From positions 544,001-608,000 of the forward strand of contig CAWCKY010000003.1 of NCBI GenBank assembly GCA_963796275.1: a DNA stretch of 64,000 nt, read 5' to 3'. The translations under genes were made by a program, and so were the position numbers. This document shows positions 16,405 through 21,368 of the stretch, piece after piece; position 1 is the first letter of the stretch, and each line of letters starts with the position of its first letter. The notes beneath the pieces are model-generated. The model did not search any database. It saw only the letters and a list, made by a program, of their open reading frames with translations, and was not told the DNA's origin. This DNA is from an uncultured Acidobacteriota bacterium. Lineage in GTDB: Bacteria > Acidobacteriota > Blastocatellia > RBC074.

Positions 16405-16890
16405 TTATCTCTTCTGCCTTTCCGATTCGAATTGCTGGGTCGGTTCTTCAATAATGCTGTTATACGCGGTTGACGGCTCGTGGAGCACGCGATTAGTGCC
16501 TCTCGGTATTTCAGCGGGAGAATAATCGGTAGGCCTGGATGGCTTTTTCTCCTCGACCTTGCCGGCAATTTTGATCAATCCGAGCAGGTGGCGGCAAATA
16601 AGAATAAGAGCGCCGAATCCGCTCATCCCGAAAAGTATCGGGATCGGCGTTTTCCCCTCGTCGATCACCATAATTATTACAGTTCCTATCGTAATGAAGA
16701 GAAAGCCGAAGATACTGAGCCAGGCGACGATCTTTATTACCGACGATGGTTCAAATTGAGGGACATTCGCGCCTGTCGTCATCTCGCTCACGATTTCACG
16801 TGCGCGATCGATCGCGATCAGATTTGTCCCGCATCGTGTGCAGTACTTCTGACCTTTCGAATTTTCAGCCCCGCAATCCGGACAGAACAT
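16405..16890 (-). CDS. zinc-ribbon domain membrane protein
   Basis: MFCPDCG...YCTRCG followed by two TM helices. Confidence 0.82.
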   Translation of the reverse strand: MFCPDCGAENSKGQKYCTRCGTNLIAIDRAREIVSEMTTGANVPQFEPSSVIKIVAWLSIFGFLFITIGTVIIMVIDEGKTPIPILFGMSGFGALILICRHLLGLIKIAGKVEEKKPSRPTDYSPAEIPRGTNRVLHEPSTAYNSIIEEPTQQFESERQKR

Positions 16891-16991
16891 GCCGCATCTC
16901 CTCCTCGCCCAACATATTTTTCAAACTATACTCGGTAAGAAAAACATTTTCCATTTTTCATCTTATATTTTTCATGTTTATCTTCCCGGGC

Positions 16992-17021
16992 TTGACGGAC
17001 TTACCCGATGCGTTGTAAGGT
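16992..17021 (+). promoter_or_regulatory. putative sigma70 promoter for the riboswitch leader
   Basis: TTGACG-18 nt-TAAGGT, 20 nt upstream of the first aptamer. Confidence 0.5.
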
Positions 17022-17040
17022 TCAGCTTCTAAAATTTAAT

Positions 17041-17091
17041 CGTGGTGATTTATGGCGGCTTGCTCCACGTAAATAATGCGCTAAAAAGCCC
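17041..17091 (+). ncRNA. SAM-II-like riboswitch aptamer 1
   Basis: CGUGG-UGAUUU-auGGC-GGCUUGC-u-CCACG-uaaauaaugc-GCUAAAAA-GCC: P1 CGUGG/CCACG, conserved GAUUU, UUGC and GCUAAA, pseudoknot pair GGC/GCC. Confidence 0.78.
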
Positions 17092-17115
17092 GATGGCTCC
17101 TGCAGATAGGAATTG

Positions 17116-17153
17116 AAGCCTCGCGCTTTTGGGCGCGGGGCTTTTGAATTTTT
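17116..17153 (+). terminator. intrinsic terminator after aptamer 1
   Basis: aagcctcgcgc-ttttgg-gcgcggggctt followed by ttgaattttt. Confidence 0.75.
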
Positions 17154-17172
17154 GCCGAAAATATTTTTACAG

Positions 17173-17224
17173 AAGATTTTTTGTAAAGATTTTTTGTAAA
17201 GATTTTTTGTAAAGATATTTTCTA
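17173..17224. repeat. 13-bp tandem repeat (AAGATTTTTTGTA)x3 plus one degenerate copy
   Basis: Perfect units at 17173, 17186, 17199; degenerate at 17212. Confidence 0.92.
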
Positions 17225-17276
17225 GAAGCTATCTGGTTAAGCAGTCATCTGGTAATAAGCTGTTTTGAAAATATGA

Positions 17277-17325
17277 GGTGGCGATTTAGGCGACTTGCTC
17301 CACTGGAAAAACTGCTAAAGAGCTA
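17277..17325 (+). ncRNA. SAM-II-like riboswitch aptamer 2
   Basis: GGUGG-CGAUUU-aGGC-GACUUGC-u-CCACU-ggaaaaacu-GCUAAAGA-GCU: same core as aptamer 1 with compatible pair changes. Confidence 0.75.
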
Positions 17326-17332
17326 GGTGTTT

Positions 17333-17371
17333 TAGGCCCTACGCTGACTTTAGCGTAGGGCCTATTTTATT
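17333..17371 (+). terminator. intrinsic terminator after aptamer 2
   Basis: Perfect 13-bp stem taggccctacgct/agcgtagggccta then ttttatt. Confidence 0.85.
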
Positions 17372-17419
17372 GATCGCGGTCATCAATCAACAAAATGGAA
17401 ATACGGGGCGGAAATATCA

Positions 17420-18190
17420 ATGCTTAGTTTCAATGATCAGATCGTGCTGATTACAGGGGCTTCGCGCGGGATCGGCCGTGCGGCGGCCCTCAAATTCGCG
17501 GAGGCGGGCGCGGCGGGGGTTGTCATCAACTACCATCGTGATAGCGAAGCGGCATCGCGGGTAGCCGAAGAGGTGGAGCGTGCGGGAGCGCAAGCTCTGG
17601 TTTGGCGGGCGGACGTCTCACGCGCGGATGAAACAGCAGCAATGGTGGAGCAAGCCATGACGCGCTTCGGCAGGCTCGATGTGATGGTAGCAAATGCGGG
17701 CATCTGGCCTCCGCAAGACCGCGCGATCATCGATCTCGATGAAGCTCAGTGGGAACAAACGATTCGCATCAATGTCGATGGGATTTATCACGTATGCCGG
17801 GCAGCTGCGCGCGTCTTCGTTACGCAGCGCCGCGGAAACATCGTCACCATTAGTTCGACCGCGGGACAGCGAGGCGAGGCGGGGCACGCGGATTATGCCG
17901 CTTCGAAGGGAGCGGTTATCAGCTTCACCAAATCGCTGGCATCCGAACTCGGTCGCTTCAACGTGCGCGCTAACTGCGTCGCGCCGGGTTGGGTCGACAC
18001 CGATATGGCTGCTCCCGCCCTGCGCGATGATGAGGCGCAATTGCATAAAATCAGAAATACGATTCCGATCGGCCGCATTGCCACGGCCGAGGATGTCGCA
18101 GGCCCCATACTTTTTCTGGCTTCCGATCTCGCGCGTCACATTACCGGTGAAATTCTCAATGTGAATGGCGGATCGGTGTTGTGCGGATGA
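17420..18190 (+). CDS. SDR-family (FabG-like) NAD(P)-dependent oxidoreductase
   Basis: TGASRGIG, ANAG, YAASK, NCVAPG. Confidence 0.92.
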   Translation: MLSFNDQIVLITGASRGIGRAAALKFAEAGAAGVVINYHRDSEAASRVAEEVERAGAQALVWRADVSRADETAAMVEQAMTRFGRLDVMVANAGIWPPQDRAIIDLDEAQWEQTIRINVDGIYHVCRAAARVFVTQRRGNIVTISSTAGQRGEAGHADYAASKGAVISFTKSLASELGRFNVRANCVAPGWVDTDMAAPALRDDEAQLHKIRNTIPIGRIATAEDVAGPILFLASDLARHITGEILNVNGGSVLCG

Positions 18191-18195
18191 AAATC

Positions 18196-18278
18196 CAGTT
18201 TTTAGTTTTAAGTTTTCAGTTGGTTAGTCCCAAATAAATACTTAAAGCTGAAAACTTAAAACTGAAAACTGAAAACTG
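18196..18278. repeat. inverted heptamer arrays (CAGTTTT)n ... (AAAACTG)n
   Basis: cagtttttagttttaagttttcagtt ... ctgaaaacttaaaactgaaaactgaaaactg. Confidence 0.85.
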
Positions 18279-18295
18279 TTTTCCGAGGAGGAGCG

Positions 18296-19537
18296 ATGAG
18301 TTACGTCAAGCGACTGAAGTGTAAAATTTGCAATACGCCTTATCCGGTCGAGCCGCTTTCAATTTGTGAGGAGTGTTTCGGTCCGCTCGAAGTCGATTAT
18401 GACTATGATGCAATAAAAGAGAAGCTTACGCGCGAGGAGATTTCTTCGCGACCGAAAACCTTGTGGCGTTACCGCGAGCTTCTGCCCATCGACGGCGATC
18501 CGACCGTCGGTCTACAAAGCGGGGGCACCCCGCTCGTGCGGGCCCATCGTCTGGCCGAGGCTCTGGGTGTGCGCGAGCTTTACATCAAAAACGACGCGGT
18601 CTCGCATCCGACTTTGTCGTTTAAAGATCGGGTCGTCGCCGTCGCACTCTCGAAAGCCCGTGAGTTCAAATTTGAGGCGGTCGGCTGCGCTTCGACCGGA
18701 AATCTCGCCAACTCGGTCGCGGCCAATGCAGCAGCGGCCGGATTCCCCGCATTTATTCTCATCCCTGATAATCTGGAAAAGAGCAAAGTGATCGGCACAC
18801 AGATATTCGGAGCGAATGTCATCCCGGTCCGCGGCAATTACGATGACGCCAACCGTTTATGCAGCGAGATAGCAGGACGCCACCGCTTCGCCTTCGTTAA
18901 CGTCAATCTGCGTCCGTTTTACGGCGAGGGATCGAAAACATTCGGTTACGAAATTGCTGAGCAGTTGGGCTGGCAAACCCCGGATGCGATCGTCGTCCCG
19001 ATGGCCGGCGGATCGCTGATCACAAAAATCCATAAGGCATTCAATGAGCTGGGCCAATTAGGCCTCATTACACCCGCCGAAACCCGGTTTTATGGCGCTC
19101 AGGCCACGGGTTGCAATCCGATATCAGCCGCGGTCAAAGCCGGGACCCGCGAAATATCTCCCGTCAAACCCAATACGATCGCGAAGTCGCTCGCTATCGG
19201 CAACCCGGCCGATGGTTATTTTGCTACCGGCGTCATCGAGGAGACGGGCGGCTGGTCTGAGGATGCGAGCGATGCGGAGATCATAGAGTCGATTAAATTG
19301 CTGGCCGAAACAGAAGGCATTTTTACGGAGACGGCGGGGGGCACGACGCTCGCCGTGACCAAGAAGTTGCTGGCGCAGGGCCGACTTTCCCCCAAAGATC
19401 GCATAGTCGTCGCGATTACAGGGAATGGTTTGAAGACTCAGGAAGCATTATCGCTTTCGAACCTCGATTCAATTGAACCAAAGCTTTCGGCATTCGAGGA
19501 GCTTCTGGGCGCACGATTGGATGCGCTCGCGGCGTGA
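18296..19537 (+). CDS. threonine-synthase-like PLP enzyme (possible sulfur-carrier-dependent homocysteine synthase)
   Basis: N-terminal CxxC..CxxC, PTLSFKDR (PLP lysine), ASTGN, TGNGLK; adjacent to a MoaD/ThiS gene. Confidence 0.9.
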
Positions 19538-19595
19538 GCAGCCGAATTATCGGTATGATAGGTCTCCAACCTGTCCTACTCGCGGAGAAAAAACT

Positions 19596-19871
19596 ATGTC
19601 TCAAAGAGTGATAATTCCAACTCCATTGCGCCGCTTCACCAATGGTGCGGAAACAATTGAGGTGCAGGGTAAGACGATCGGCGAGATATTCGATCAATTG
19701 GAAGCCAGTTATCCGGGCATTCGCGCTCGCTTGTGCGAGGAGAACGGCGAATTGCGCCGCTTCATTAACGTTTATGTCGACGGCGAAGACATTCGCTTCC
19801 TCGATCGATTGCAGACCAGCGTTGGCGAGAAGGCCGAAGTATCGATTGTTCCGGCGATTGCCGGGGGGTAA
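19596..19871 (+). CDS. MoaD/ThiS/CysO-family sulfur carrier protein
   Basis: [18 protein letters not shown]-terminal PAIAGG. Confidence 0.92.
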
Positions 19872-19983
19872 TAATCACGATTTTAAAAGGTACATCTAGG
19901 TACATCGAGAGATAGGGGGAGAAAACTATTCGCCCTCTGCTTTTTGATGGCTTTTATTTTTGTATATTCTCGATGCGAACTTC

Positions 19984-20235
19984 TCAGTGCTTGTTCTTTT
20001 TAAACCGCACCGCGCCGAGCACCTCGCTGGTGTGTATCGGAGTCGCTTTATTTAGTACTGTATGATTGAGCATGATTAGCAATTGATCATCGCGGCCGCG
20101 GAAGCGACCGGTGAGAGGCTGATCACCGGTCTGCACTACCACTCCTTCTCTCACCATATTCCAGAATTGCTTCTGTGTGATCCAATACTCCTTTTTATCA
20201 TTGCAGATGATCAGGGCCGTCTTTTTTACTCTCAT
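19984..20235 (-). CDS. hypothetical protein
   Basis: 83 aa ATG ORF starting 2 nt after the aroF stop. Confidence 0.6.
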   Translation of the reverse strand: MRVKKTALIICNDKKEYWITQKQFWNMVREGVVVQTGDQPLTGRFRGRDDQLLIMLNHTVLNKATPIHTSEVLGAVRFKKNKH

Positions 20236-20237
20236 AT

Positions 20238-21278
20238 TTATCGATTTTGGCTGACCTCCTTAATATTTTCTTTTTGACGTAGATCAAAATACGGTTGCAG
20301 GTCATCCATCATTTTAGCGAATTCTTCCAGGCGCAGAGACTGAGGACCGTCGGACCATGCTGTTTCCGGCGTCGGATGAACTTCGATCATCAATCCATCG
20401 GCTCCGACTGCTACTGCAGCCTTGGCAAGCGGGTGGACCAGGCTGCGCTTGCCCGTCGCATGACTCGGATCGACGATCACCGGAAGATGCGTCAATTCAT
20501 TGAGCAATGGTACGGCGGCCAGATCGAGCGTGTTTCGTGTGGCCGTTTCGAACGTACGTATGCCACGTTCGCAGAGTATCACATTGGGATTGCCGTGTGT
20601 GACGATATATTCGGCGGAGAGCAAAAATTCCTTGATCGTCGCCGAGAGCCCACGTTTGAGCATGACGGGCCTCGATATTTCACCGAGTTTTTTCAGGAGG
20701 GCGAAATTTTGCATATTGCGCGCGCCGACCTGCAATATATCGGCATATTCGGCGACCAGCTCAACATCCTCAGTGTCGAGCACTTCAGTTATCACCTTCA
20801 ACCCCGTACGCCTGCTCGCCTCGGCTAATAGTTTCAGCCCTTCTTCGGCGAGACCTTGAAAGTCGTAAGGTGAGGTGCGCGGTTTGTACGCACCGCCGCG
20901 CAATATCTGCGCGCCCGCAGCCGCTACGGCATCCGCGGTTTTGATCAACTGGTCGTAGCCTTCGACCGAGCAGGGGCCGGCCATGACGACGAAACCGCCA
21001 TCGCCGATAATGACGTTATCAATGGGGACCGGCGATTTCTGTTTCTTCACCTCTCTGCTGACCAGCTTGAACGGCTGCAGGATGGGAAATGCATTCTCGA
21101 CGCCGTCCGCTGATTTTAGGCTTTCGATATGCTCCTTCTTGTCACCCGGGCCCACGGCGGCGATCACGGTTCGTTCTGTGCCACGAATGACGTGCGGGGC
21201 ATAGCCGTACTCACGTATGCGGTCGCAAATATGGTTGATCTGATCATCCGTCGCTTCTGCTTGCATTGCTACGATCAT
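20238..21278 (-). CDS. aroF: DAHP synthase type I-beta with N-terminal ACT-like domain
   Basis: [41 protein letters not shown]. Confidence 0.95.
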
Positions 21279-21368
21279 ATTCTGTCGTTCCTCCGTATGT
21301 TTTTTAAGTTTCAGATTTTTCAATCGCCGATCGAGACCTAAATGAAACCGAAAATTTTCATCTCTTCT

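Follow-up and report, generated by a model that had tools for sequence, protein, structure and literature searches.

A tandem SAM-II-controlled operon of an uncultured Blastocatellia bacterium as a probable MetM/MetO route to homocysteine, with an SDR gene as a lineage-specific companion

Introduction

In Mycobacterium tuberculosis, the CysO/CysM/Mec/MoeZ system lets a protein thiocarboxylate donate its sulfur to a PLP enzyme that works on an O-phospho amino acid. Krishnamoorthy and Begley reportedly described in 2011 a Wolinella succinogenes system, HcyS/HcyD/HcyF together with MetY, in which the sulfur of homocysteine comes from a protein thiocarboxylate.

The closest described system is MetM/MetO of Streptomyces albulus, which leads from O-phospho-L-homoserine to homocysteine and is attributed to Hasebe, Adachi, Maruyama and Hamano 2024 (Appl Environ Microbiol 90:e01247-24) as cited in passages of a preprint (bioRxiv 10.1101/2024.10.14.618325) and of a further article (PMC12172450). 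The passages of the preprint describe the steps of MetM, MetO, MoeZ and Mec and state that threonine synthase is a frequent but wrong annotation of MetM. According to the passages of PMC12172450, S. albulus metM has an upstream SAM riboswitch, a Microcystis homologue is 51.6% identical to S. albulus MetM, and the neighbour of this homologue is 47% identical to MetO. Two in vitro activities are reported there for the Microcystis 'ThrC', formation of threonine from O-phosphohomoserine and deamination of threonine; methionine did not rise in cells. Tandem SAM-II riboswitches have also been catalogued, with 44 doublets listed and a 'pseudo-cooperative' type distinguished in passages of Sherlock et al. 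2022 (RNA Biol 19:1059, PMC9481103); these passages mention neither Acidobacteria nor threonine synthase.

Here we describe a locus from an uncultured Acidobacteriota bacterium of the class Blastocatellia. It lies in a window of 64,000 nucleotides, the whole stretch of DNA that was analysed (contig C3, 544001-608000), and all positions given below are those of the window. The locus is very probably a mis-annotated member of the known MetM/MetO system, and novelty is confined to the variant of the operon with the SDR (plus aspartate kinase).

Results and Discussion

The locus spans positions 17028-19871 on the plus strand and consists of a tandem leader, with two pairs of SAM-II aptamer and terminator, and of three genes for an SDR oxidoreductase, a ThrC-family PLP enzyme and a ThiS/MoaD-family carrier. 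A possible promoter (TTGACG, an 18-nt spacer and TAAGGT; 16992..17021, plus strand), tentatively read from the sequence, ends approximately 7-10 nt 5' of the first aptamer; a consensus scan of 16850-20300 listed no plus-strand promoter, the interior of the operon included. The first aptamer (17028..17110, plus strand) reaches 37.5 bits on the SAM-II model RF00521 over 17032-17105, the gathering score being 36. It was also scored on R1, a model that we built from the alignment of aptamer 2 with six relatives, and obtained 87.2 bits there as one of the training rows. It is followed by an intrinsic-terminator-like hairpin of 13 pairs, eight of them G-C, with a T-rich tail (17115..17154, plus strand).

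The second aptamer (17264..17344, plus strand) is a diverged copy that misses the gathering score of RF00521 by far, with just 18.7 bits and an E-value of 0.47 over 17268-17339. Aligned with the SAM-II aptamers of six relatives, it retains the SAM-II core. Its 73.5 bits on R1 are partly circular, as it is itself a training row; independent support comes from a second aptamer at the matching place in relatives that were left out of the R1 training set. The 5' arm of the second intrinsic-terminator-like hairpin (17333..17374, plus strand; 14 pairs, eight of them G-C, then TTTTATT) overlaps the 3' end of this aptamer. The SAM-type aptamers to which the earlier note had pointed upstream of the genes can thus be specified as two SAM-II aptamers. 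They resemble the tandem SAM-II riboswitches in the passages of Sherlock et al. (PMC9481103) in that two aptamers stand in series, each with a terminator stem of its own, as in the 'pseudo-cooperative' type.

The spacer between the SDR and PLP enzyme genes contains a 25-bp AU-rich palindrome with (CTGAAAA)n heptamer repeats (18197..18274, plus strand), with a fold of -38.2 kcal/mol and a z of -5.84. Dozens of similar heptamer arrays were found on six of seven contigs, indicating a genome-dispersed repeat. Since it is dispersed, has no U-run and is missing from most of the corresponding spacers of relatives, the palindrome is ruled out as a specific regulator or terminator. Weak matches of miRNA families to it are chance hairpin matches.

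The second gene (18296..19537, plus strand) encodes a MetM-like, ThrC-family PLP enzyme of 413 aa (PF00291, 235.5 bits), a putative homocysteine synthase dependent on O-phosphohomoserine. The protein passes the threonine synthase equivalog TIGR00260 (282.6 bits, cut-off 167.1), stays slightly under the cut-off of NF006050 (297.6 bits, cut-off 303) and matches the cysteate synthase model TIGR03844 weakly (54.9 bits). Its Schiff-base lysine K110 lies in an SFKDR motif and is invariant across the MetM-like and ThrC clades. The threonine-synthase fold with an N-terminal Zn-ribbon, as first noticed from the sequence, agrees with these matches and with a CxxC...CxxC ribbon, in which 17 diverse homologues all conserve C9, C24 and C27. 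Such a Cys ribbon is not peculiar to the MetM-like protein: the other ThrC of the genome begins likewise.

A phylogeny against ThrC had been proposed as a check. In a tree of 46 rows, in which Nonomuraea and Micromonosporaceae homologues represented the actinomycetes in place of S. albulus MetM, the window protein fell into a separate clade of 37 rows (SH-aLRT 100, stem of 1.58 changes per column), together with the two actinomycete proteins and five cyanobacterial ones. The ThrC of this genome lies outside this clade, in a ThrC clade of six rows (support 98) that also holds second ThrC copies of four other genomes carrying a MetM-like gene. The phmmer scores were bimodal, with 420-808 bits for members of the MetM-like clade and 155-209 bits for paralogues. 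The two clades are separated by 24 alignment columns, and the window protein has the MetM-clade residue in all 24. Among them are V113 (G in ThrC), L137 (T in ThrC) and R206/Y209 (N/R in ThrC), and several adjoin the PLP lysine motif. The best solved-structure match reached 179.4 bits (ThrC structures 2zsj, 1uim, 6cgq and 2d1f).

The window protein is 58% identical to a Microcystis homologue (locus L095) and 51-55% identical to the nearest actinomycete homologues, and its link to a characterised MetM runs via the identities quoted for Microcystis and via an actinomycete look-alike locus. In databases, all of its close homologues are named threonine synthase. Its best 120 homologues are all Acidobacteriota-type, and the best 120 of the actinomycete representative are all Micromonosporaceae-type.

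The third gene (19596..19871, plus strand) starts 58 nt 3' of the MetM-like gene and encodes a MetO-like sulfur carrier of the ThiS/MoaD family with 91 aa (PF02597, 54.1 bits; NF041918, 61.6 bits against a cut-off of 60). The ubiquitin-like protein ending in GG that had been recognised directly after the PLP enzyme is this carrier; it terminates as ...PAIAGG-stop, exactly at the GG, so that no C-terminal trimming is needed. A GGAG lies ten bases before the start codon ATG at 19596, and 91 aa is the length in most homologues; the longest ORF, from TTG 19473, probably does not mark the real start. The carrier is 40% identical to the CysO-like domain of this genome. To assess the linkage, 80 homologous loci from genomes of many phyla, with no actinomycete among them, were inspected. 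A MetO-like ORF followed within 650 nt after the MetM-like gene in 68 loci; in 4 it lay at a greater distance, and the remaining 8 yielded none. In seven loci (L028, L029, L041, L043, L044, L051 and L058), the MetO-like ORF is longer, with 171-190 aa.

The operon is preceded by SAM riboswitches of two classes. Outside Blastocatellia, SAM-I (RF00162, 67.6-96 bits) was found directly upstream of the MetM-like gene in 13 of 21 loci, with none in the five cyanobacterial loci, while in Blastocatellia a tandem SAM-II stands upstream of the operon. An 11.85-Mb Nonomuraea replicon, obtained by tblastn of a plasmid collection, served as the actinomycete stand-in and shows the order SAM-I, MetM-like gene and 91-aa MetO-like gene. 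Within the genome under study, R1 revealed one more SAM-II aptamer, the third, ahead of a gene for a YitJ-like fusion. Rfam misses this leader, indicating that it is insensitive to such variants. With Rfam, no SAM-I was found in this genome among the 150 of 609 candidates that were scored, and nothing at E <= 0.01 around metYX, thrC, thrB, the CysM cluster and the other two Cys/Met PLP genes.

The remaining methionine, threonine and cysteine genes place the operon in context. The ThrC of the genome (283.5 bits) adjoins an aspartate kinase, ThrB scores 229.1 bits (cut-off 168.25), and both MetX and MetY are present, MetY with 744.6 bits as homocysteine synthase (cut-off 726). The earlier note had suggested looking for a separate thrC and for missing metX and metY; the separate gene exists, but the expected absence does not hold. 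MetX and MetY leave no pathway gap that would demand a MetM route, and from its gene content the genome appears to run the MetM/MetO route in parallel to MetX/MetY and not as a replacement.

No gene of the ThiF/MoeB family and no JAB gene was found within the 64-kb window, in line with the initial remark that a MoeB/MoeZ activator and a carrier-releasing peptidase are not encoded there. Both are encoded elsewhere in the genome, with matches on contig C6 and on C3 at 1.32 Mb. On C6, a fused ThiS+ThiF+rhodanese protein adjoins a JAB peptidase and a CysM-like enzyme. A second JAB peptidase adjoins metY, and a second ThiF-family gene is also present. The operon shares its logic with the CysO/CysM system of M. 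tuberculosis, to which the C6 cluster corresponds in this genome, except that the C6 carrier is fused to the MoeZ-like enzyme; the window enzyme, in contrast, belongs to the ThrC and not to the CysM/CysK subfamily and would have another product. The JAB gene beside metY recalls the Hcy route of W. succinogenes, which differs in relying on MetY and O-acetylhomoserine instead of a ThrC-fold enzyme and O-phosphohomoserine.

The separate clade, the linkage to the carrier, the two classes of SAM riboswitch and the published MetM/MetO route support a reading as homocysteine rather than threonine synthesis. We conclude that the locus is very probably an operon that is repressed by SAM and serves homocysteine synthesis by the MetM/MetO thiocarboxylate route, which strengthens its original designation as a candidate phosphohomoserine-to-homocysteine operon. 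At high SAM, each SAM-II aptamer would bind SAM, its own terminator would form, and transcription would stop before the genes; two switches in series would sharpen the response. At low SAM, read-through would produce the SDR, the MetM-like enzyme and the MetO-like carrier. The C-terminal Gly-Gly of the carrier would be adenylated and turned into a thiocarboxylate by a MoeZ-type (ThiF plus rhodanese) enzyme encoded elsewhere, and the MetM-like enzyme would take O-phosphohomoserine from ThrB and swap its phosphate for the carrier sulfur at the gamma position. A true ThrC adds water where MetM would add sulfur. A JAB/Mec-type peptidase would free homocysteine from the carrier, and the YitJ-like fused homocysteine methyltransferase/MTHFR, under its own SAM-II switch, would methylate it to methionine.

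These enzymatic steps and the co-transcription of the three genes are predictions from the sequence. The operon is favoured by an SDR-MetM spacer of 23-58 nt in 8 of the 11 relatives with the SDR 5' of MetM, as well as by the fact that no plus-strand promoter was listed inside; the 25-bp palindrome between the SDR and MetM-like genes speaks against co-transcription. As far as the passages on S. albulus describe its MetM/MetO system, the two have in common a ThrC-fold enzyme and a GG-ended carrier behind a SAM riboswitch, MoeZ and JAB genes in the genome, and the database label of threonine synthase. The window differs in its tandem SAM-II pair, where the Nonomuraea locus has SAM-I, in the SDR gene with which the operon opens, in the carrier that stops exactly at its GG, and in the coexistence of the route with MetX/MetY.

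This first gene (17420..18190, plus strand) encodes a classical SDR oxidoreductase of 256 aa (PF13561, 224.9 bits; PF00106, 202.5 bits). It is FabG-like but stays under the FabG equivalog cut-offs (TIGR01830, 245.6 against 297.75 bits; NF004198, 227.2 against 296 bits) and passes only the broad subfamily models NF005559 and NF009466. The SDR had been described from the start as an unexplained extra component, and this still applies: part of Blastocatellia conserves it together with the operon, it is not universal in the class, and in the other phyla examined no SDR was found with a MetM/MetO operon. It is a lineage-specific operon companion within Blastocatellia. Three gene orders occur in this class, namely SDR-MetM-MetO, MetM-MetO-SDR(-aspartate kinase) and MetM-MetO-SDR-CysM, and elsewhere the SDR is unlinked. 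It lies 5' of MetM in 11 relatives and 3' of MetO in loci L031, L032, L158, L162, L212, L125, L159, L160 and L163, the first five of which have the order SAM-II, MetM, MetO, SDR, aspartate kinase. In L124, the SDR comes after MetO and is followed by a CysM-like gene. Across the 80 MetM/MetO loci, the SDR was present in two, both from Blastocatellia.

The SDR could be a passenger with a general role that became co-expressed through local rearrangement and has no direct part in homocysteine synthesis, a reading to which we give slightly less than an even chance. It would explain why the SDR keeps its place between the Zn-ribbon/PEGA genes and the DAHP synthase gene, both with and without the riboswitches and MetM/MetO beside it. 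In three genomes (G013, G019 and G029), SDR orthologues stand alone at the matching chromosomal place and the riboswitches directly precede MetM, and in two others (G009 and G022) an orthologue is present where MetM was not found at E <= 1e-100. A FastTree phylogeny, whose support values carry less weight, mixes the operon-linked SDRs of the family with the unlinked ones in a single clade (support 0.99), and in all other phyla examined the MetM/MetO operons do without the SDR. On the other hand, several families of Blastocatellia show the linkage, with more than one gene order, and in five loci the SDR is wedged among pathway genes with short spacers.

The SDR could also be a dehydrogenase of the methionine branch, most simply a feedback-insensitive, SAM-repressed homoserine dehydrogenase. 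Besides the recurrent order with aspartate kinase and the three gene orders, such a function would fit the distribution among 80 metagenome SDR loci, where 7 of the 9 with at least 55% identity are operon-linked and none of the other 71. In E. coli, MetL is a fusion that covers the aspartate kinase and homoserine dehydrogenase steps, and an SDR of this function together with the operon aspartate kinase of sister lineages would mimic its split halves. However, a canonical homoserine dehydrogenase (Hom) is encoded in the window's genome and in 35 of 36 other same-family genomes searched; this rules out the SDR as the sole homoserine dehydrogenase and leaves no gap for it to fill. In addition, many relatives have the SDR apart from the operon or in another setting, with related SDRs also in MFS-SDR-NamZ clusters, and there are essentially no residues specific to operon-linked SDRs, a single column (T143) being partly specific. 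The window's own operon lacks an aspartate kinase, and the hits listed in a literature search included no SDR-type homoserine dehydrogenase. We regard a methionine-branch dehydrogenase as unlikely, and assign what probability remains beside it and the passenger to some other accessory role of the SDR. It is doubtful, and rather improbable in our view, that the Blastocatellia MetM/MetO route gained a dedicated SAM-repressed supply line with the SDR as a homoserine dehydrogenase (aspartate semialdehyde reductase) that is feedback-insensitive and not homologous to the canonical enzyme; by analogy, that the SDR and the aspartate kinase of sister lineages would in this way recreate MetL as two separate genes seems just as doubtful.

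As to the enzyme itself, a genuine second threonine synthase (or threonine synthase/deaminase), with the ThiS-like gene serving something else, would account for the TIGR00260 score, for the name given to every close homologue in databases and for the in vitro activities reported for the Microcystis member of the clade in passages of PMC12172450. The window protein does share with ThrC the fold, the SFKDR motif and presumably the substrate O-phosphohomoserine. It differs in its separate clade, the 24 discriminating columns, the carrier linked in 68 of 80 loci and the SAM control by two classes of riboswitch, and a separate ThrC is present here, as are second ThrC copies in all four other genomes searched; we consider a second threonine synthase very improbable. 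There is equally little chance that the enzyme and carrier make another sulfur compound (e.g., cysteine or a cysteate-like product) with SAM control as general sulfur economy: cysteate synthase is a ThrC homologue with a weak TIGR03844 match here, the L124 operon runs on into a CysM-like gene and the carrier resembles the CysO-like domain, but such chemistry has a CysM-like/JAB/carrier-MoeZ cluster of its own in this genome, its other SAM-II-controlled gene is the homocysteine methyltransferase fusion, and the activity published for the family, in passages of 10.1101/2024.10.14.618325, is homocysteine synthesis.

Conclusions

Thousands of database entries of the MetM-like clade are called threonine synthase, and most of them are probably homocysteine synthases. 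Their re-annotation would change the reconstruction of methionine and threonine pathways in Acidobacteriota, Planctomycetota, Nitrospirota, Verrucomicrobiota, actinomycetes and cyanobacteria. The occurrence of one operon under SAM-I in some phyla and under tandem SAM-II in Blastocatellia is a natural label of its function. If the SDR has no part in the pathway, the locus is an ordinary member of the MetM/MetO route. If it does act there, it would be a new enzyme or accessory step for a route described in 2024, and should it prove to be a homoserine dehydrogenase, the aspartate pathway would have its first SDR-type enzyme at this step.

Operon layout and the tandem SAM-II leader

The earlier note had described an SDR, a ThrC-like PLP enzyme and a GG-ended carrier behind SAM-type aptamers. 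All of these are present in the window, and the aptamers are of the SAM-II class. Three genes on the + strand encode a 256-aa SDR oxidoreductase (17420-18190), a 413-aa ThrC-family PLP enzyme (18296-19537) and a 91-aa ThiS/MoaD-family protein (19596-19871), which ends in PAIAGG directly before the stop codon. The 530-nt leader lies between these genes and a divergent Zn-ribbon membrane-protein gene (16405-16890, - strand), and the operon end is convergent with a DAHP synthase gene (20238-21323, - strand), on whose side a prephenate dehydratase gene is also found. The window is C3:544001-608000 of the source genome (9.46 Mb, 7 contigs), and the nearest homologues belong by name to the class Blastocatellia of the Acidobacteriota.

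Aptamer 1 (17032-17105, + strand) reached 37.5 bits in Rfam against a threshold of 36, and aptamer 2 (17268-17339, + strand) remained below threshold with 18.7 bits and an E-value of 0.47. When aligned with five above-threshold SAM-II aptamers of relatives, aptamer 2 was seen to retain the conserved SAM-II core. Our covariance model R1 was made from an alignment including aptamer 2, and its scores for aptamers 1 and 2 (87.2 and 73.5 bits) are both those of training rows. Independent evidence that the second aptamer is real comes from paired copies at the same place in relatives outside the training set, as loci L109, L110, L111, L112, L115 and L116 gave two R1 matches each. The loci that contributed one training row each likewise carry two aptamers, as do L154, L155, L156, L157, L158 and L159; in L027, L031 and L032 two aptamers lie 5' of the MetM-like gene, and L162 and L212 have one each.

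Behind each aptamer on the + strand come a G+C-rich hairpin and a run of T (17115-17144 and 17333-17364), and both switches therefore resemble transcription terminators that act one after the other. Tandem SAM-II pairs of precisely this kind are catalogued in PMC9481103, with 44 doublets, some having a terminator per aptamer. Between terminator 1 and aptamer 2, positions 17173-17215 hold about three copies of a 13-nt direct repeat of the GATTTTTTGTAAA type, within which promoter-like hexamers occur on the - strand.

A genome search with R1, in which 150 of 633 candidates were scored, yielded three SAM-II aptamers: the two in the window leader and one elsewhere (L139:1501-1582, genome C4:1380605-1380686, - strand), behind which a fused homocysteine S-methyltransferase/MTHFR (YitJ-like) is encoded. 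Rfam at E <= 0.01 did not detect this third aptamer, and no riboswitch near metYX was found by either Rfam or R1.

The SDR-MetM spacer of the window is 105 nt long and contains a 25-bp AU-rich palindrome (-38.2 kcal/mol, z -5.84) with no U-run after it. The palindrome (18197-18274) is made of CTGAAAA heptamers. Tandem (CTGAAAA)n repeats, often long palindromes, are scattered by the dozen over six of the seven contigs, and in a sister genome (locus L108) a different, ATGCTAG-type heptamer palindrome occupies the same intergenic spot; these repeats resemble REP or STRR-like elements. The remaining relatives all have a ribosome-binding site in this spacer, whose length is 23-58 nt except for one of 110 nt. 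No separate switch for the MetM-like or MetO-like gene was found in the window, and the promoter scan listed no + strand promoter-like site within the operon. A single predicted transcript for the three genes is the simplest reading.

Carrier linkage and SAM riboswitches across phyla

We examined 80 loci from one-genome-per-species contigs, with enzymes 56-83% identical to the window protein. A MetO-like ORF was located at most 650 nt downstream in 68 of them and farther away in four; none was found in the other eight, three of which are truncated by contig ends. The carriers of six phyla align over their full length and all end in GG. Outside Blastocatellia, Rfam placed SAM-I directly 5' of the enzyme gene in 13 of 21 loci (67.6-96 bits) and did not report it in eight, including all five cyanobacterial ones. 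In the actinomycete Nonomuraea gerenzanensis, a SAM-I riboswitch is followed by genes for the enzyme (51% identical) and a 91-aa carrier. Thus, the same operon has recruited two unrelated SAM-sensing RNA classes in different lineages, which points to a role in methionine/SAM metabolism rather than in threonine synthesis.

Phylogeny of the ThrC-like enzyme

The source genome has four ThrC-like genes, namely the window gene, one encoding a 446-aa paralogue directly 3' of an aspartate kinase gene, one behind a CysK-like gene and one with NF006050 as best fit. A tree of 46 hand-chosen rows was built by IQ-TREE quick search with SH-aLRT support only. The rows came from 43 loci (L034 giving two), the window protein and one Micromonosporaceae protein. 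Of these loci, three were own-genome paralogues, 29 belonged to the set of 80 genome loci, five were Blastocatellia relatives, five held further ThrC-family copies from four other genomes, and one was the Nonomuraea locus. The window protein fell within a 37-row clade (support 100, stem 1.58) of Acidobacteriota, Planctomycetota, Nitrospirota, Verrucomicrobiota, Aquificota, other phyla, five cyanobacteria and two actinomycete rows. Distinct from it, a six-row clade (support 98) comprised the genome's own aspartate-kinase-linked ThrC, four more ThrC copies (one for each of four other genomes with a MetM-like gene) and, from L034, a ThrC-like ORF lying 3' of MetM-MetO; the other three rows are long branches whose placement is uncertain. 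The window enzyme stands apart from the ThrC clade, in line with the earlier note's reading of a homocysteine pathway rather than threonine synthesis. Scores of phmmer against the window protein were bimodal (420-808 bits against 155-209), and at all 24 columns that distinguish the two clades the window has the MetM-clade residue. No solved structure was found inside the MetM-like clade, the top structure matches being true ThrCs at about 180 bits.

Two loci deserve separate mention. In a Nitrospirae MAG (L034:5853 onward) the ThrC-clade gene directly follows MetM-MetO, so that both O-phosphohomoserine users are in one cluster. In L027 (contig CAZRXE010000361.1), from a MAG labelled Heliomicrobium, the MetM-like gene shares 83% identity with that of the window and is accompanied by tandem Blastocatellia-type SAM-II aptamers; because this gene falls within the Blastocatellia clade, the contig is probably mis-binned.

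Relation to the published pathway

According to bioRxiv 10.1101/2024.10.14.618325, Hasebe et al. 2024 reported the pathway in Streptomyces albulus: MetM, a ThrC homologue "often misannotated" as threonine synthase, makes homocysteine from O-phosphohomoserine and the MetO thiocarboxylate, with MoeZ and Mec as helpers. PMC12172450 places a SAM riboswitch upstream of metM and homologues also in cyanobacteria, with a Microcystis protein sharing 51.6% identity with MetM and the neighbouring protein 47% with MetO. For this clade member the same paper reports threonine synthase and threonine deaminase activity in vitro and no increase of methionine in cells, and this is the main published point against a uniform MetM function of the clade. 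The window locus would be assigned to the pathway through an indirect chain, formed by the quoted Microcystis identities and the look-alike actinomycete locus. On this assignment, it belongs, under a wrong annotation, to a pathway that was published in 2024, and its type of riboswitch arrangement was catalogued in 2022.

Linkage and possible role of the SDR

The SDR is a classical one that scores under the FabG equivalog cut-offs and has FabG-type reductases as best solved relatives. It was compared with 60 relatives, and 29 loci were examined; this 60-relative tally and the homoserine dehydrogenase (Hom) tally include one unpublished genome, G004, on which none of the specific claims depends. 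The order SDR-MetM(-MetO) was present in 11 of the 29 loci, all 11 with two SAM-II matches 5' of the SDR, and MetM-MetO-SDR in two. No MetM was seen within the 1.5-kb SDR flanks in 16; of these, two have the SDR where the contig begins and one is truncated by the end of its contig. Three genomes from the source genome's own family (G013, G019 and G029) have the tandem switches directly before MetM-MetO, and their SDR orthologue lies elsewhere, switchless, beside PEGA and Zn-ribbon genes. Genomes G009 and G022, of the same family, have the SDR, and MetM was not found in them at E <= 1e-100; in L119, from this pair, the SDR and DAHP synthase genes converge, just as the operon and its DAHP synthase neighbour do in the window. 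Remoter SDRs lie in MFS-SDR-NamZ clusters. Other Blastocatellia lineages and metagenome contigs (L031, L032, L158, L162 and L212) show the order SAM-II, MetM, MetO, SDR and aspartate kinase, and L124, a single case, has MetM, MetO, SDR and a CysM-like gene. Seven of 80 metagenome SDR loci were linked to MetM/MetO, all among the nine that are at least 55% identical, and in the cross-phylum set of 80 MetM-like loci only two, both from Blastocatellia, had the SDR. By FastTree, the family's SDRs fell into one clade (support 0.99) whether linked or not, with a single alignment column even partly specific to the operon-linked ones. The linkage is real, recurrent and lineage-specific, and it is not obligatory. 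In the incomplete relatives L120 and L122 (completeness 74% and 78%), three overlapping frames stand in place of a single MetM-like frame downstream of the SDR, reflecting either assembly frameshift errors or decaying genes.

We consider it somewhat more likely that the SDR is a passenger of the operon, because canonical Hom is present in most genomes (54 of 61 searched, 35 of 36 of the family). The same counts speak against a place in the aspartate-to-homoserine supply line, which the position between carrier and aspartate kinase in the sister lineages suggests; E. coli MetL includes a homoserine dehydrogenase half, of which the SDR might be an analogue. Six Blastocatellia genomes of 97-100% completeness (G038, G042, G044, G048, G052 and G054) gave no PF00742 homoserine dehydrogenase match and may be auxotrophs or users of an unrecognised enzyme. 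Within the full texts covered, a literature search found no SDR-type homoserine dehydrogenase, and the main text of the GapMind preprint has 0 occurrences of both "SDR" and "short-chain dehydrogenase". We found no description of the SDR, or of the added aspartate kinase of the sister lineages, inside a MetM/MetO operon.

Candidate helper genes and a probable parallel methionine route

The earlier note had placed the activator and the carrier-releasing peptidase outside the window, and ThiF-family and JAB genes do lie elsewhere in the genome. One cluster on contig C6 holds a pair of genes (L026:1456-1875 and L026:1879-2814), one CysM-like and one for a JAB peptidase, and a 490-aa MoeZ-like fusion (L018:1078-2550, genome C6:389480-390952, - strand) of a ThiS-like carrier domain, ending in IAGG followed by A, with ThiF and rhodanese. 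It looks like a CysO/CysM/Mec/MoeZ-type cluster, in which the carrier domain would need to be released from the activator fused to it, with the JAB peptidase as the presumed agent. A second ThiF-family gene, for a 342-aa MoeB/ThiF-family adenylyltransferase with no rhodanese domain (L019:1183-2211, genome C3:1322724-1323752, - strand), is directly upstream of the homoserine kinase gene thrB (C3:1321669-1322613), after which his genes come; an E1-like enzyme thus adjoins the gene making O-phosphohomoserine. A second JAB peptidase gene (L025:1483-1884, genome C6:1111168-1111569) is divergent from metY-metX, which recalls the Wolinella HcyD/MetY arrangement.

The genome also encodes a canonical homoserine dehydrogenase. 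The earlier note had proposed to check for a separate thrC and for a lack of the usual methionine route; the former is present beside aspartate kinase, and the latter is not seen, as MetX, MetY and two more Cys/Met-family PLP enzymes are encoded. Therefore, MetM/MetO in this organism would be a second route to homocysteine and no substitute for a missing one.
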